DNA of 64,000 nucleotides from a virus. Lineage: Duplodnaviria > Caudoviricetes. The position numbers were made by a program, and so were the translations under genes. Under the pieces are notes generated by a model. That model was given only the letters and a program-made list of their open reading frames with translations. It searched no databases and had not been told where the DNA came from. Positions 1-6,059 of the stretch are shown one piece after another; positions within the stretch are counted from its first letter, which is position 1, and every line of letters starts with the position of its first letter. The stretch spans positions 2,655 to 66,654 of IMG/VR virus record IMGVR_UViG_3300043372_000090; one strand, written 5' to 3'.

Positions 1-63
1 ATCACCGTTTTCAGTGGTAGTTACTAACCAGCCACATTTAAAGTTTCTCGTTCTAATCATTGT

Positions 64-270
64 TTAGTAACCTAACCTCCTGCTACGTGCTGACTTCTCA
101 TCAGCAGTACGTGCATCTTGAATCATTTGATCTAACTGCCTCGTTAGACTCTTGAGATGCTCTTCGTTTGCACGTATTGTGTTGCCTGTGCGGGACCATG
201 TCTTGTACATGCACCGTGACAACTCAGATATCTCAGCTTGAAGCATGAGGATGTCGTTATTTTGTTTCAT
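64..270 (-). CDS. hypothetical protein (coiled-coil-like), first gene downstream of hammerhead HH1
   Basis: 68-aa ORF with an AAGGT SD-like element upstream; same strand as the rest of the arm. Confidence 0.7.
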   Translation of the reverse strand: MKQNNDILMLQAEISELSRCMYKTWSRTGNTIRANEEHLKSLTRQLDQMIQDARTADEKSARSRRLGY

Positions 271-302
271 AAGTGTTACCTTTGTTCTTATGTAGCCGCT
301 TG

Positions 303-374
303 TTAAGCCTGACTCATCAGTGTGGGTAGGCTAATTCCCACAGACTTCTCCGCATGGGAGAAGTTTCGTCTTAA
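303..374 (-). ncRNA. hammerhead ribozyme HH1, type II (stem II open), with loop I pseudoknot
   Basis: Minus strand reads GAC-GAAA-CUUCUCC(CAUGC)GGAGAAG-UC^-UGUGGG(AAUUAGCCUA)CCCACA-CUGAUGA-GUC-AGGCU. Full core present; GUC cleavage predicted between 343 and 342. Confidence 0.92.
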
Positions 375-814
375 ATGAGGCCCGTTGCCTTCATCGCGTA
401 GTGCTCAAGAATCTTGGCTTGCGCCACGTAGGTGCCATACCACAGAGGGTAGCCAGCACCTTTTATTGTCAACAAGCAATCAAGCTTGAAGGGATATGTG
501 TTTCGGCTCTTTTTCACGACAGCCTTTTTGTTTGTGTGTTGCTCAAGCCACACGGCAAACTCTTTTGCCTCATCCTCTGTAATGAACAGCAGCATTTGTT
601 TATGGCCTTCTGGGTTGAGGGTTATTACGTCCTCATTGTCCTCAGTTTTAAGGACAAACGGTACGTTTGGCCAATCGAGCAGTTCTTTCTCGTCATGGCC
701 AAATTCCTGAGCGTCTTGGCGAATCAGTGCCAATACGTTGTCGCGCTCAAGGCGCACCTCTTTTGCAAGGTGCGCCACTTCCATCTTCTTCTTGATCTCG
801 TTAAAAAACTTCAC
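371..814 (-). CDS. hypothetical protein
   Basis: ORF track gives 371..844; GTG at 814 preceded by GGAGA is the likelier start. Confidence 0.7.
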   Translation of the reverse strand: MKFFNEIKKKMEVAHLAKEVRLERDNVLALIRQDAQEFGHDEKELLDWPNVPFVLKTEDNEDVITLNPEGHKQMLLFITEDEAKEFAVWLEQHTNKKAVVKKSRNTYPFKLDCLLTIKGAGYPLWYGTYVAQAKILEHYAMKATGLI

Positions 815-978
815 TTTGTTTCTCCATTGCACGTACAGTTGCACGTGCGGTGCGTCTTCTTACCAGTAAGCCAAAACTCCTCCGCTGTCATGCCTTGACC
901 GCCGATAAACCCGGCAATTGAAATCATGACAAGCATAGTAACTCCTATGCCCTTCCAACTAAACTCTTTAAATCTCAT
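811..978 (-). CDS. small membrane protein (55 aa) with C-terminal CxCxC, absent from ORF track
   Basis: Reads MRFKEFSWKGIGVTMLVMISIAGFIGGQGMTAEEFWLTGKKTHRTCNCTCNGETK; ATGA overlap upstream and GTGA overlap downstream; fills the gap exactly. Confidence 0.75.
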   Translation of the reverse strand: MRFKEFSWKGIGVTMLVMISIAGFIGGQGMTAEEFWLTGKKTHRTCNCTCNGETK

Positions 979-1607
979 TTTGTTTCTTCCTTCTCATCCT
1001 CGTAGTATGTAAAATCTATGCCTTTAGCGTCGATTACTTGTTGTTTGTGTATAGCCTTGCACTTCTCAAGGTGCTCAAACCATCCACCCTTGCCATGACG
1101 CAATAACTCCATGCGGTCAATGATCGCCATTAAGTGTGTTCCGGGCCTTGTTGGATTGGTTCGGATATCAGCAATCTTGATGCTCGTTGTTGTATTACCG
1201 AACCGAGTTACGATGTCGGCAAACATGTGGACCTCCCAATCACCATCAGGCTCACATGTCATCCAAAGACAGCCAGTTGTTGTGTGAACGGTAGCTGGGT
1301 CTTGTGAACCACAGAACAACTTATGTGCCATTGCGTACCAGTTCAACGCTTCGTTGTATTCCTCATTGACAATGCACATAAATGCGCATTGAAGATACAT
1401 ACGAGCATCGCTCGTCGCATGTTCGTCAAAGTAAGTTCTTTCTTCAACTTGCTCTTCCCAGTACGTACGCTTTATCAGCACGTTCGAGAGAATAGTGGCA
1501 CAAATGCTGTCCACGTCACGCTTGGCGTCGCTATATACAACAGGGGAAGGAATATCCCCGTAGTAGGGGAAGGTTATGTTGAAACGGTTTTCCATGAGGT
1601 ACCTCAT
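975..1607 (-). CDS. hypothetical protein (true start may be ATG 1595, after GAGGT)
   Basis: 210-aa ORF immediately downstream of HH2. Confidence 0.75.
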   Translation of the reverse strand: MRYLMENRFNITFPYYGDIPSPVVYSDAKRDVDSICATILSNVLIKRTYWEEQVEERTYFDEHATSDARMYLQCAFMCIVNEEYNEALNWYAMAHKLFCGSQDPATVHTTTGCLWMTCEPDGDWEVHMFADIVTRFGNTTTSIKIADIRTNPTRPGTHLMAIIDRMELLRHGKGGWFEHLEKCKAIHKQQVIDAKGIDFTYYEDEKEETK

Positions 1608-1637
1608 TGTTTGTTTTGATATCTGATAAGTAAGTAA

Positions 1638-1696
1638 AACGTGTTTCGGCTTGACTGCCTCATCAGTCCATAGGAATCACCCTATGAATACACGTT
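1638..1696 (-). ncRNA. hammerhead ribozyme HH2, type III
   Basis: AACGUG-UA^-UUCAUAGG(GUGAUU)CCUAUGGA-CUGAUGA-GGC(AGUCAA)GCC-GAAA-CACGUU; canonical core; cleavage predicted 1689/1688; loops I and II are complementary. Confidence 0.93.
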
Positions 1697-1727
1697 GGGG
1701 TGGCACGTTAGCACCACCCCGTAGTTG

Positions 1728-1859
1728 TTAGTGACCGTATCGATGCATTGGGAGCGTTGATAGCGCCCAATACATGAACATCAACCCACCAACGATGATG
1801 ATGGCCGTAATGCCATCTAGCACGAACTGGACTAGCCAGTGGTGACGCCGTTGTTTCAT
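1728..1859 (-). CDS. small membrane protein (43 aa), absent from ORF track
   Basis: Reads MKQRRHHWLVQFVLDGITAIIIVGGLMFMYWALSTLPMHRYGH; ATGA overlap with 1856..2104. Confidence 0.7.
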   Translation of the reverse strand: MKQRRHHWLVQFVLDGITAIIIVGGLMFMYWALSTLPMHRYGH

Positions 1860-2104
1860 CTGCCACCGATCCTTCGTGCCAACGCTACAACGTCAACATC
1901 GTCTGATGCGCCCATGATGCGGGCGAGCGATACCATCTCGCGCTCCAGTTGTGCCCACGACAGGATGTGCCCAGTGAAGCCCATCTCACCATGGGCACTC
2001 TTCAACGTAATCGTTGTCTGTCCGCTAGGTGTTGGAGTCGAAATGCTAACCGAGTACTTGCGGTTTTGTGTCAGAAACAAGCCATTGAATTGCATGGCAT
2101 TCAC
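1856..2104 (-). CDS. hypothetical protein
   Basis: 82-aa ORF with GAGGTG SD directly after HH3. Confidence 0.75.
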   Translation of the reverse strand: MNAMQFNGLFLTQNRKYSVSISTPTPSGQTTITLKSAHGEMGFTGHILSWAQLEREMVSLARIMGASDDVDVVALARRIGGR

Positions 2105-2114
2105 CTCTTTGTTG

Positions 2115-2178
2115 TGTTACGTTTCGCCTGTAGACTGGCCTCGTCAGCTCATTGGCATCACCCAATGAGGACATAACA
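2115..2178 (-). ncRNA. hammerhead ribozyme HH3, type III, extra G after A9
   Basis: UGUUAUG-UC^-CUCAUUGG(GUGAUG)CCAAUGAG-CUGACGA-G-GCC(AGUCUACA)GGC-GAAA-CGUAACA; cleavage predicted 2170/2169. Confidence 0.88.
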
Positions 2179-2202
2179 AAATAAAGGGGGGCTTTCGCCC
2201 CC
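2177..2202 (-). terminator. intrinsic terminator-like hairpin abutting HH3
   Basis: GGGGGC-GAAA-GCCCCC followed by CUUUAUUUU on the minus strand. Confidence 0.7.
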
Positions 2203-2213
2203 ACATCCCGACA

Positions 2214-2495
2214 TCATCCCTTGGTGAAGGTGCAGTTGTCGTACTCGAACGTTGCAGGTGTACCATTCCAATGACGTGCAATCCAATACGCGCCTTCAAC
2301 GTCGATTGGCTTGATGGTGTGTGAACGACTTGCACATGCCAGCATCTTCAAGAGGTATGCGTCCGTCCAGTTGGACATCTGGTGTACGAATGTTTCACCA
2401 TCGTCAATGACGTATGGACCTTTAGTGGTTGTTAGCGTCCACGTAGCGACTTGATAGGGAACAGATTGTGTGTGTGTGTGTGTTGCGAATGACAT
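2214..2495 (-). CDS. hypothetical protein with an (AC)8 tract near the N-terminus
   Basis: ORF track start 2555 lies inside a terminator; ATG 2495 (MSFATHTHTQ) follows an AAGGA. Confidence 0.65.
   Translation of the reverse strand: MSFATHTHTQSVPYQVATWTLTTTKGPYVIDDGETFVHQMSNWTDAYLLKMLACASRSHTIKPIDVEGAYWIARHWNGTPATFEYDNCTFTKG
2467..2482. repeat. (TG)8 dinucleotide repeat
   Basis: tgtgtgtgtgtgtgtg read directly. Confidence 0.95.
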
Positions 2496-2527
2496 TGGCT
2501 CATTATCCTTTTGTTTTTTGTTTTCAG

Positions 2528-2563
2528 AAAAAAAGTGACACCCGGTGGATTGCACCGGGTGTC
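2528..2563 (-). terminator. intrinsic terminator
   Basis: 11-bp perfect stem GACACCCGGTG/CACCGGGTGTC, 5-nt loop, then AC-U7 on the minus strand. Confidence 0.85.
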
Positions 2564-2571
2564 TGGGGGGA

Positions 2572-2937
2572 CTATTCGTCCCCGTCTACACCCAACATAG
2601 CGGTTCCAAGGGCGTCTGCGGTGAGACCCTTGATGGATTGTGCGACAAAGTCGATATCCTTGCCGGTAGTATCCAATACAGGCGCGAGTTTAGCGGACAA
2701 TGTTGCCAGTACCGCTTTATAGTTATCAGGCGTGGTTTTACGACGCTTGATTCCTTGAATGTAGGCAGTTTCGACAGGTTGCAATACTTTGTTCGCTGTC
2801 GACTTCGACATGAGCATACCGATTGCAATGTGCGATTCTATCGCCGCGATTGCCTTAGAATATGCCGCCTGCGCGCCTGCGTAGACTGTTAGCGCGGGTT
2901 TTGATGCGGGTGTTGATGCGGGTGTTGATGTTGCCAT
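2572..2937 (-). CDS. hypothetical protein with N-terminal PAST/PASK repeats, first gene after HH4
   Basis: ATG 2937 follows GAAGGAA; the ORF-track extension to 3066 runs through the ribozyme and is unlikely to be translated. Confidence 0.75.
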   Translation of the reverse strand: MATSTPASTPASKPALTVYAGAQAAYSKAIAAIESHIAIGMLMSKSTANKVLQPVETAYIQGIKRRKTTPDNYKAVLATLSAKLAPVLDTTGKDIDFVAQSIKGLTADALGTAMLGVDGDE

Positions 2938-2959
2938 CGTTTTATGTTTCCTTCGTTTT

Positions 2960-3019
2960 GATGTTTCGGCTATAACCTGCCTTCGTCGGGCATTATCAGG
3001 TGAACGATAATACGACATC
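2960..3019 (-). ncRNA. hammerhead ribozyme HH4, type III variant (U4C core, extra A after A9)
   Basis: GAUG-UC^-GUAUUAUC(GUUCACCU)GAUAAUGC-CCGACGA-A-GGC(AGGUUAUA)GCC-GAAA-CAUC; cleavage predicted 3014/3013; loop ACCU is complementary to loop AGGU. Confidence 0.8.
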
Positions 3020-3275
3020 GGAATGGAAGAACGTAACCGAACGACCCCGGAGGGCGTCCACACCATGTATGTAGACCGGGATTTAGGGCACAGTCACGTG
3101 GGGTGGTGGGGTGGGGCTTAGACCCGGCATGGCAAGGGGGTGCCCCGGTTGGCACGGCACAGTAGTGACTCCAAACCATATATTCTCAGCTATCCTCTAT
3201 CTATTTCTCCCATCGGAGAAACTGTTTCTCCCCGTAGAAAATAGGTTCCATACGGTTTTGCTACACTTTGCACTA

Positions 3276-3284
3276 TGTTATACT
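3276..3284 (+). promoter_or_regulatory. extended -10 promoter (TGtTATACT), probably leaderless
   Basis: TGTTATACT followed by 7 nt and ATG 3292; no SD. Confidence 0.6.
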
Positions 3285-3291
3285 TTCGATT

Positions 3292-3825
3292 ATGGCTAAT
3301 CAATTTAAATCAGGTAAAGAAGCAGGTGGGTACTTATTTGATGTTGCTATCCGTAAGGGTAAGGCTGCTGCAAGGGATGAGTGGGAACGCATTGTGAGCA
3401 GCTTGCCTAAAGATCAAAAACAGGCTTTTATCGATGCGTCAATTGATATTTACGAACAAAAGCATATTAAAGAAAATGAGGGCTTAGGAGCGGCTAAGGT
3501 ACAGCGTTATCGTGAAAAAGCTGCCAAGAACATGCCAGTTGATTATGAAAAAGAGTTTGCTAAAAAACCAGAATCAAAACCAGTTGCAAAACCTACGCCT
3601 AAGCCAGCCGCAAAACCTGCAACTAAACCAGTTCCAATGGAAGATGAAAAAGGCTTTCGTCCATATGGAGGCGGTACAACCACTGGTAATACTGTACGCA
3701 AGTTGATTGATGTAAAAGCGGATAAGCCAGCTCCTAACAGTCGGCCAACAATTGGTACTGGTGCTGCAGGAATGCTAGATCTAAACGCACTTGCATTAAA
3801 ACCTAGTGGCAAGGCACCTAAATAA
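3292..3825 (+). CDS. hypothetical protein with K/P/A-rich linker (KPVAKPTPKPAAKPATKP)
   Basis: ORF track 3268..3825; ATG 3292 sits 7 nt after the -10 hexamer. Confidence 0.75.
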   Translation: MANQFKSGKEAGGYLFDVAIRKGKAAARDEWERIVSSLPKDQKQAFIDASIDIYEQKHIKENEGLGAAKVQRYREKAAKNMPVDYEKEFAKKPESKPVAKPTPKPAAKPATKPVPMEDEKGFRPYGGGTTTGNTVRKLIDVKADKPAPNSRPTIGTGAAGMLDLNALALKPSGKAPK

Positions 3826-3843
3826 GATATACTTACGGTATCT

Positions 3844-3915
3844 TCCTACTTAGCTCAGCGGTAGAGCATCCGGCTGTTAACCGGACGGTCGCTGGTTCGA
3901 TCCCAGCAGTAGGAG
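3844..3915 (+). tRNA. tRNA-Asn (GTT), CCA not encoded
   Basis: Acceptor TCCTACT/AGTAGGA, D arm GCTC..GAGC, anticodon stem TCCGG-CTGTTAA-CCGGA, T loop TTCGATC. Confidence 0.96.
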
Positions 3916-3938
3916 TATAATCGATGTGAGGTATAGAT

Positions 3939-4220
3939 ATGCATGAAGAAGGCAGACAATACAACACACCACAGCTGCAGAATAGGAATCGACGTAACGC
4001 AGAATATATCCGACATGGATTGAAAGAGGATCGTGATAAACGAGTTGAGGACATGGGAGCGCAAGCTAAACAGCATGCTGCTTATATAAATGTTATGAAC
4101 AAAACCAGTCCAGAAATCAAAGCTACTGTCAATAAACCTGTGTATACAAAGGTAAGTAACAAGCAAGCAGCAGAAGCCATGTCAGGTACATCGTATTCTA
4201 AGCTCCTCAAATTTAAATAG
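3939..4220 (+). CDS. hypothetical protein
   Basis: 93-aa ORF with TATAAT at 3916 and GAGGT SD. Confidence 0.7.
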   Translation: MHEEGRQYNTPQLQNRNRRNAEYIRHGLKEDRDKRVEDMGAQAKQHAAYINVMNKTSPEIKATVNKPVYTKVSNKQAAEAMSGTSYSKLLKFK

Positions 4221-4263
4221 ATTCCCCATGCATGTAAACGCACCGGGATGGTATAGTTAGATC

Positions 4264-4367
4264 GCCACCGAGAGGTGAGCTTTGAAAGGCCAGAAACCTC
4301 CTCTTCTTGCCCGACAAATTCTAACTCTGCAAACAATTAAGACCAGTCAGCCACGCTGGTCTTTTTT
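4264..4367 (+). ncRNA. candidate small RNA with anti-SD motif
   Basis: TGgTATAGT promoter at 4249-4257, 5' GNRA hairpin CACC-GAGA-GGTG, ACCTCCTCTTCTT segment, 3' terminator; no plausible ORF. Confidence 0.5.
4339..4367 (+). terminator. intrinsic terminator
   Basis: AAGACCAG/CTGGTCTT stem followed by a T tract. Confidence 0.8.
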
Positions 4368-4409
4368 GTTGTTATACTACAAACACCAGTTGATAGTAGG
4401 AGGCAGTCA

Positions 4410-5303
4410 ATGACAGTAATTGAATACATAACGGATCAAAGTCCATTTGTGCTGTGTTTGATGAGTGATCTACACATAGGTGGCTTACACGTAGATTACA
4501 AACTGATTGAAAAGGAATTAGCCGATGCAAAAAAGCGCGGAGCTAAGATACTTATTAATGGTGATGTATTCGACGCCATACTTCCCGGTGATCGCAAACG
4601 ATATCGCGCTAATAATCTTCACCCTCGTTTATACGACGCTGGAGACGATATGCTTGGCGAATCTATACGGTGGGCATATGAAATCCTAGCTCCATATAAA
4701 GATGACATTATTATGATTGGAGATGGAAATCATGATGATGCCGTCGCAAGATACCACCACATAGAGCCTGTTAAGCATTTAATCGTAATGCTAAATGGTG
4801 CTGACGGTAAGATTCAATATGGCGGATATCACGGCTTCATTCATGTACAACTGCGTCCTTTTAGCGACACTCATTACGGACACTACGTCATTCACTATCA
4901 CCACGGAGCCGGGGGCGCCGCGCCAGTAACTAAGGGCGCTATCACCTTTTCAAGGGCAGCTATGTGGATAGAAGGTGCAGACGCTATTTGGCGTGGGCAT
5001 ACACATCACAGGCAAGCTGGCAGGGACAACAAGGTAACGTTTAACAAGAGTGTTGTTGTGCCAGAGAACAGAGTGATGACACGAGATGTGCTTACACTGC
5101 GTACTGGATCATACTTTGACACATATGTAGGAACAACTAGCGAGCAGTTGTTAAAACATGGGCGTAGAGATTCATATGCTGCACTGTGGGATTCTCCCAC
5201 TCTCCCTAAAGGTGGACTTATGCTTACTTTAAATGCAGTCCATTCTAGGGACGTTCGCGGTAAAGGAAGTACAGTACTTGTTAAAGATACATTGGAGATG
5301 TAA
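4410..5303 (+). CDS. calcineurin-like metallophosphoesterase
   Basis: Motifs SDLH, NGDVFD, GNHD, HHG and GHTH in order; TGtTATACT promoter at 4370-4378; AGGAGG SD. Confidence 0.9.
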   Translation: MTVIEYITDQSPFVLCLMSDLHIGGLHVDYKLIEKELADAKKRGAKILINGDVFDAILPGDRKRYRANNLHPRLYDAGDDMLGESIRWAYEILAPYKDDIIMIGDGNHDDAVARYHHIEPVKHLIVMLNGADGKIQYGGYHGFIHVQLRPFSDTHYGHYVIHYHHGAGGAAPVTKGAITFSRAAMWIEGADAIWRGHTHHRQAGRDNKVTFNKSVVVPENRVMTRDVLTLRTGSYFDTYVGTTSEQLLKHGRRDSYAALWDSPTLPKGGLMLTLNAVHSRDVRGKGSTVLVKDTLEM

Positions 5304-5569
5304 TGACTATATTGCAAGCGTTTATTGTTGGTGTCGCAATAACATCGTTAGTGTTTTATGTCTATGACTACATTGCTGGGTACTTTGATTACCTGAAATT
5401 TAAAAAATGGTTGGTTGAAGTTGATGTAGACATCAGGTCATTAAGTGAATTAGACTTTGACAAGTACTTTGCAATGTGGGAAATAAGCAAATTACCAAAT
5501 ATAGTCATTGAGGAAGTAAAGGACAGGAGCAACGACAATGGCATCAGCGGAGAAAACGGATCCAAGTAA
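5303..5569 (+). CDS. small protein with N-terminal transmembrane helix
   Basis: ILQAFIVGVAITSLVFYVY hydrophobic stretch; TAATG overlap. Confidence 0.7.
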   Translation: MTILQAFIVGVAITSLVFYVYDYIAGYFDYLKFKKWLVEVDVDIRSLSELDFDKYFAMWEISKLPNIVIEEVKDRSNDNGISGENGSK

Positions 5570-5924
5570 GTGGAAAGCTATTGTCTCGCGAGTCAAATCA
5601 GGTACAAAGGGTGGAGATCCCGGCGAGTGGTCCGCCCGTAAAGCGCAACTTGCAACTCAACAGTATAAGAAGTCTGGTGGAGGCTATAAAGGCCCTAAAA
5701 CAAGCGACAATAGCCTAGCTAAATGGACAGATCAGAAGTGGAAAACCAGTGATGGGTCTCCCAGTGAAGGCAAAAAACGCTATCTCCCTGAAAAAGCGTG
5801 GGGTGCTTTATCATCCGGAGAAAAAGCTGCTACCAACCGTGCTAAAGCTGCAGGAAATAAAGCCGGAAAACAGTACGTAGCACAACCAAAATCAATTGCA
5901 CGTAAAACCCAAGGATATCGATAA
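5538..5924 (+). CDS. conserved basic phage protein (DUF5872-like)
   Basis: KGGDPGEWSARKAQL...YKKSGGGY and RYLPEKAW match a recurrent freshwater-phage family as recalled. Confidence 0.7.
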   Translation: MASAEKTDPSKWKAIVSRVKSGTKGGDPGEWSARKAQLATQQYKKSGGGYKGPKTSDNSLAKWTDQKWKTSDGSPSEGKKRYLPEKAWGALSSGEKAATNRAKAAGNKAGKQYVAQPKSIARKTQGYR

Positions 5925-5925
5925 A

Positions 5926-5951
5926 AAAAGCCCCTCTGTGAAGGGGGTTTT
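5926..5951 (+). terminator. probable bidirectional terminator
   Basis: A tract, GCCCCT...GGGGG hairpin, T tract. Confidence 0.65.
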
Positions 5952-5978
5952 ATATACTTACGGTATAATTAACCACAA

Positions 5979-6059
5979 CCCCAGTTGGTGGAATGGTAGA
6001 CACGACGGACTTAAAATCCGTTTCTGCAAAGAGTACAGGTTCGAGTCCCGTACTGGGGA
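5979..6059 (+). tRNA. tRNA-Leu (TAA), long variable arm, CCA not encoded
   Basis: Acceptor CCCCAGT/ACTGGGG, D arm GTG..CAC, anticodon stem ACGGA-CTTAAAA-TCCGT, T loop TTCGAGT. Confidence 0.93.

Follow-up and report, generated by a model that had tools for sequence, protein, structure and literature searches.

A pseudoknotted type II hammerhead ribozyme abutting a stop codon in a phage operon

The biological role of phage hammerhead ribozymes is still called elusive in recent literature (PMC13725137). One such element, termed HH1 here, begins directly at the stop codon of a phage gene. Does this placement tie the ribozyme to the ribosome that terminates there, or does the ribozyme provide the end of the upstream message? 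We analysed HH1 in its window, the whole 64,000-nt stretch of DNA under study, and compared it with related loci and with phage hammerheads of all three types. The window is nearly all of a 66.6-kb IMG/VR phage record, which has 122-bp terminal repeats and encodes a large terminase, a portal, a major head protein, and a DnaB-type helicase.

Anatomy and operon context of HH1

HH1 occupies the interval separating two small genes in a phage operon that runs leftward (Table 1) and probably consists of early genes. On the minus strand, the locus reads UUUAA-GAC-GAA-ACUUCUCC-CAUGC-GGAGAAGU-C-UGUGGG-AAUUAGCCUA-CCCACA-CUGAUGA-GUC-AGGCUUAA, and the segment from 370 to 306 is a complete type II hammerhead, with all core nucleotides and with stems I, II, and III of 6, 3, and 8 bp. 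All nucleotides required of the type II core (C3, U4, G5, A6, N7, G8, and A9; G12, A13, and A14; the A15.1–U16.1 pair; and an H17 that is not G) are present, as are the G10.1–C11.1 pair and the topology of circular permutation II, in which loops close off stems I and III and stem II is open. Folding with ViennaRNA recovers stems III and I, in the minimum-energy structure as well as in the centroid. The preliminary description of HH1 as a type II hammerhead was borne out on re-reading, letter by letter and coordinate by coordinate, and the element agrees with the class consensus as published (PMC3088659). With its stems of 6, 3, and 8 bp, HH1 was the only type II hammerhead found by a descriptor scan of both strands of the window, and none of 200 Markov-shuffled windows produced an element with stems of at least 5, 3, and 6 bp.

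The genes of this region are mechanical open reading frame calls. The upstream gene gave a weak DUF3110 match as its sole Pfam result, seven neighbouring small proteins compared with PHROGs matched no families, and megablast of window positions 1 to 6000 against GenBank phages returned a tRNA match and nothing else. Two tRNA genes lie on the plus strand, just past the divergent start of the operon.

Table 1. Features of HH1 and its surroundings, in window coordinates
Feature	Position	Strand	Remarks
Upstream gene	371..814	minus	147 aa; GTG 814; Shine–Dalgarno GGAGA; TAA stop 373–371 (ORF list)
Stem II, 5′ strand GAC (11.3–11.1)	368..370	minus	pairs with GUC 313–311; invariant in 10 relatives; covaries in the class
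Core G12 A13 A14	365..367	minus	invariant in relatives
Stem III hairpin, 8 bp	344..364	minus	A364–C357 with G351–U344; A15.1 = 364, U16.1 = 344; loop CAUGC = 356–352
C17, predicted cleavage 343/342 (GUC/U)	343	minus	position in hammerhead consensus
Stem I hairpin, 6 bp	321..342	minus	UGUGGG 342–337 with CCCACA 326–321; 10-nt loop I 336–327
Core CUGAUGA (C3–A9)	314..320	minus	invariant in relatives
Stem II, 3′ strand GUC (10.1–10.3)	311..313	minus	pairs with GAC 370–368
3′ tail AGGCU	306..310	minus	pseudoknot with loop I AGCCU 332–328
UUAA word	303..306	minus	unsupported as helix with UUAA 374–371
Downstream gene	64..270	minus	68 aa; ATG 270; starts 40 nt past stem II
HH2, type III	1638..1696	minus	stems I/II/III 9/3/7 bp; predicted cut after A1689
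GC hairpin, 10 bp	1697..1720		directly precedes HH2
HH3	2115..2202	minus	CUGACGA, with one additional G ahead of stem II
Terminator-like hairpin with U tract	2187..2202		followed by HH3
HH4	2960..3019	minus	CCGACGA core
tRNA Asn (GTT)	3843..3916	plus
tRNA Leu (TAA)	5979..6059	plus

HH1 is accompanied by further candidate ribozymes, and four hammerheads had been proposed within 2.7 kb. Two of these were confirmed by descriptor, and the other two were recognised by reading the sequence; the strict CUGANGA descriptor scores neither HH3 nor HH4. As judged from sequence only, the operon cluster comprises one type II and three type III elements, two of them with variant cores. HH2 lies 31 nt past the stop of a 43-aa gene.

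Covariation in relatives and in the class

A contig syntenic with the HH1 phage (L051) encodes orthologues of both flanking genes, 44% (upstream) and 52% (downstream) identical, with a hammerhead between them. With stem III as the search pattern, seven further contigs came from IMG/VR and six from metagenomes, and a protein-profile search with the alignment of upstream-gene orthologues recovered exactly the same eight IMG/VR contigs; the single 147-aa upstream protein, used as query, found no related loci. In all eight IMG/VR contigs, the ribozyme follows the same gene, whose product is 34 to 53% identical to that of the HH1 phage. There was no ribozyme-free relative among the eight contigs recovered by the orthologue-alignment search; as all eight carry the ribozyme, every detectable relative keeps HH1. 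The upstream-gene orthologues all end in ATGL(I/L)-stop, directly at the ribozyme.

Alignment A2 contains ten distinct sequences, HH1 and nine further relatives. The core is invariant across the ten; pairing in stem I is complete (100%), and two of its pairs are doubly compensatory. A 5-bp pseudoknot between AGCCU of loop I and AGGCU of the 3′ tail had been proposed. The complementarity is present, and it is upheld by compensatory changes in the relatives: A332–U306 changes to G–C and G331–C307 to A–U, on both sides in each case, and the pairs 330–308 and 329–309 are kept. The fifth pair, U328–A310, is the part of the proposal that does not extend to the relatives; it occurs in just 3 of the 10 sequences, and the conserved pseudoknot is therefore one of 4 bp, with 5 bp in the HH1 phage. 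The same pseudoknot register covaries in the 11 unrelated ribozymes of alignment A5, described below.

Stem III (ACUUCUCC/GGAGAAGU) is letter-identical in all ten relatives (L051 and L123–L135), despite the 34 to 53% protein identity nearby. Its 3′ strand is Shine–Dalgarno-like and resembles the ribosome-binding site of the upstream gene, GGAGAAAC.

Beyond these direct relatives, a pattern scan of IMG/VR for GACGAAAC..GTC..CTGATGAGTC matched at least 120 contigs, which among the matches listed hold about 210 to 225 type II hammerheads, often several per contig. A MAFFT alignment of 28 ribozymes of mixed architecture (A3) was structurally inconsistent in stem I, and an 11-sequence subset (A5) was used in its place. 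This subset consists of pseudoknotted type II hammerheads from IMG/VR contigs unrelated to the HH1 phage. Covariation in A5 extends to each of the three stems and to the pseudoknot, with 95% of cells paired (versus 63% in shuffles) and both-sided changes in 18 of 21 pairs. A covariance model built from A5 (R1) scores HH1 at 64.4 bits over the full model length (window 370–303, minus strand), its sole match in the 64 kb, with an E-value of 1.4e-15 that is to be taken as rough. A pseudoknot of at least 4 bp is available to 36 of 42 type II class members among the matches listed, compared with 33% when tails are shuffled. The commoner short-loop type II elements (for example L012, L013, L015, and L017) have a stem I of 7 bp, a loop of 3 to 4 nt, and a stem II of 4 bp; their 3′ tail is often AUCAG or GUCAG, complementary to CUGAU or CUGAC of the core, and it changes along with core position 7. 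HH1 has no core-complementary tail, its tail being used for the pseudoknot.

At Rfam gathering thresholds (37 bits for RF02276, Hammerhead_II), no hammerhead was reported for HH1, and RF02276 gave no match to it at E ≤ 10. Rfam run in E-value mode on positions 200 to 480 returned a single misaligned Hammerhead_3 match of 17.3 bits, and RF02276 run over the whole phage record had one match, of 24.4 bits, on HH2 and not on HH1. This miss is a limit of the RF02276 model and does not contradict the features of HH1, whose lineage comprises phage type II hammerheads that Rfam's model misses. The ribozyme type, the pseudoknot, and the clustering between prophage genes have been known since 2011 (PMC3088659).

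Stop codons beside phage hammerheads

HH1 had been described as fused to a stop codon, with the stop forming part of an extended stem II. The adjacency is real and conserved in position: TAA 373–371 abuts stem II of HH1, and across the ten relatives the stop is either flush with GAC (TAA or TGA) or shares 1 nt with it (UAG-AC), although the stop codon and the last residues vary. The helix is not; the stop lies outside any conserved helix. Pairing of UUAA 374–371 with UUAA 306–303 is at chance level, with 33% of cells paired in the 10 relatives. A 4-bp extension of stem II occurs in 5 of 34 class members among the matches listed, whereas permuting the tails yields 4.3 ± 1.7. Of 14-mers drawn at random from the window, 18% are able to pair with UUAA. 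The proposed extension also shares U306 with the pseudoknot. We rejected a stop codon held in a conserved helix on the grounds that most relatives do not pair the UUAA words and that the pairing shows no class enrichment.

Two other pairings of the stop region fared no better. The minimum-free-energy fold contains a core-masking helix, CUCAUU 379–374 with GAUGAG 317–312, which shows no class enrichment and which we read as a chance product of Leu-Ile codons. Base-pairing between the core and the end of the upstream coding sequence was likewise at chance level in a class comparison (7% versus 9%, among the matches listed).

The position of the stop was then counted across the class. In pattern scans that are neither exhaustive nor dereplicated, the type II census comprised 186 distinct phage copies with an upstream open reading frame of at least 50 codons, among the matches listed; such a frame was absent for 18 of 204 copies. 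The gap between stop and stem II was 0 in 40 and −1 in 41 of these matches (81 of 186 together), it lay between −3 and +2 in 117 of 186, and its median was 1 nt; the remaining 69 listed copies had no stop within 2 nt. Stops of all three kinds occur among the matches listed, and the next start follows stem II at a median distance of 23 nt in the listed members of the class. A stop abutting stem II is thus typical of phage type II hammerheads and not special to HH1.

Hammerhead topologies were compared with the loci already in hand (L002–L254) and a scan for CTGATGAG..CGAAAC. Among the matches listed, the median stop gap of type I hammerheads is 3 nt (n = 34), and that of type III hammerheads is 31.5 nt and never below 13 nt (n = 20, a small sample that includes relatives of the HH1 phage). 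Most of the type III gaps, among the matches listed, contain a stable GC-rich hairpin, which extends to the 5′ end of the ribozyme or close to it. HH2 and HH3 of the HH1 operon fit the type III pattern, a separate hairpin preceding each. The 5′ cleavage product ends in stem III for types I and II and in a bare strand for type III.

The term "stop codon" occurs 0 times in PMC3088659, and placement on stem II is unmentioned there. A literature search of limited scope found no description of hammerhead stop-codon placement, which does not prove it unpublished. As far as we could see, the contrast between type II and type III gaps, drawn from a small sample, is an addition to what is known.

Proposed role, alternatives, and known systems

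We consider it fairly probable that HH1 is a pseudoknot-stabilised hammerhead of the active type, which cuts the operon RNA and whose stem III caps the upstream message. Once transcribed through position 306, HH1 would fold and cleave the polycistronic transcript 3′ of C343. This would leave an upstream message (genes 1607–371) that ends 28 nt past its stop, in the 8-bp stem III with a 2′,3′-cyclic phosphate. The downstream message would begin with a 5′-OH, followed by the stem I hairpin and then the pseudoknot; the next start lies 40 nt past stem II. Since the pseudoknot lies wholly in the 3′ product, the two products would be joined by the 3-bp stem II only and should separate immediately. 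Mutagenesis of published ribozymes found the pseudoknot between loop I and the 3′ tail to be needed for fast cleavage at 0.5 mM Mg2+, and polycistronic RNAs of prophages were seen to be cut by clustered hammerheads, in vitro as well as in Escherichia coli (PMC3088659). Cleavage in vivo, the end-capping role, and an effect on expression of the flanking genes are what we infer for HH1. In general terms, phage hammerheads would cut operon RNA and thereby leave every upstream message with a hairpin at its end.

The placement of the stop would follow from this role. The stop may sit on stem II because the ribozyme itself supplies the 3′-terminal hairpin of the upstream message, so that a compact genome needs no spacer. 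As type III elements lie at least 13 nt past the stop, mostly behind a hairpin, we read the fusion of stop and ribozyme as compaction, with stem III serving as an inbuilt 3′ hairpin, and not as ribosome gating. Several considerations weigh against this proposal: HH1 goes unreported by RF02276, the type III sample is small and includes relatives of the HH1 phage, compaction alone would likewise yield a short 5′ gap, and a purely structural cap does not explain a stem III that is letter-identical in all relatives.

The main alternative is that translation gates the ribozyme. About 10 nt 3′ of the A-site codon lie inside the ribosome, which at HH1 would take in GAC, GAA, and the first part of stem III. 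On termination at UAA 373–371, the ribosome could melt stem II and part of the core and thereby time cleavage or release, a reading that we hold to be doubtful. It gains from the contact of stop and stem II in all 10 relatives, kept though the codon varies among TAA, TGA, and TAG, and from the gaps of 0 or −1 in 81 and of −3 to +2 in 117 of the 186 type II copies among the matches listed. It loses from the 69 of 186 with no stop inside 2 nt and the 18 of 204 that lack an upstream frame, again among the matches listed, and from the type III elements, HH2 and HH3 included, which are shielded by a gap of at least 13 nt, mostly with a hairpin. The UUAA/UUAA helix that would have drawn the stop codon into the fold is not conserved, and in a published pseudoknotted ribozyme one added stem II pair lowered activity (PMC3088659). 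Ribosome gating keeps a small probability at HH1, since termination there must melt stem II; the data do not require it, and it is inapplicable to the type III neighbours. The stronger form, in which the stop on stem II is a selected device, terminating ribosomes transiently unfold the ribozyme, and cleavage or release of downstream RNA reports upstream translation, we regard as unlikely. If true, it would make natural phage hammerheads translation-sensing RNA switches.

Cleavage at HH1 might also act as an attenuator that uncouples gene 270–64 and lowers or resets its expression, through lost translational coupling or through a different decay of the 5′-OH RNA. The intergenic site 40 nt before the next start, an arrangement conserved in the relatives, would suit this role, as would the median distance of 23 nt from stem II to the start across the class among the matches listed; the sequence is silent on the direction of any effect, and attenuation is compatible with end-capping and does not exclude it. 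As an explanation of the locus, we find it quite improbable. Two ribozymes flank three genes, and joint cleavage at HH2 (1689/1688) and HH1 (343/342) could free an RNA of about 1.35 kb, possibly circularised by an RtcB-type ligase; ribozyme-flanked circular RNAs are known in eukaryotic retrozymes (PMC4918200). What would be freed, however, is ordinary coding sequence that has ribosome-binding sites of its own, and published prophage clusters are described as cutting polycistronic RNA into pieces (PMC3088659), which makes excision highly improbable. That HH1 is a chance or decayed, inactive motif could be argued from the Rfam thresholds that it does not reach, yet this is barely credible in the face of 0 of 200 comparable shuffles, 64 bits from an independent covariance model, and an invariant core with compensatory helix changes next to a gene whose product has diverged to as little as 34% identity.

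The end-capping role is the reading that we favour. HH1 alone adds little, being one more phage type II hammerhead. More useful is the rule of position, by which types I and II lie on the stop and type III lies behind a hairpin, as it offers a concrete idea of phage hammerhead function.

Engineered insulators placed between cistrons, such as RiboJ, use a self-cleaving hammerhead-type RNA that separates expression units and leaves an end hairpin. These insulators are synthetic, and their topology and sequence differ from those of HH1. The three type II hammerheads of Desulfovibrio vulgaris that cleave in vivo, as detected by cyPhyRNA-seq (PMC8782182), are of the same ribozyme type as HH1 but lie at chromosomal bacterial loci, and we liken them by type only. 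Compared with the pseudoknotted type II hammerheads of Perreault et al. 2011 (PMC3088659; RF02276), HH1 has the full consensus core and shares the short stem II (3 bp) and the loop I pseudoknot of 4 to 5 bp immediately 3′ of stem II; it is likewise intergenic, in a phage operon with several hammerheads. Its lack of a match at E ≤ 10 sets it apart from RF02276 members. Unlike the prophage triple around ardA in Agrobacterium tumefaciens (PMC3088659), the HH1 cluster of candidate ribozymes combines a single type II element with three of type III. In both, several ribozymes punctuate one polycistronic unit, and the HH1 operon, like ardA-type prophage clusters, consists of small genes mostly of unknown function.
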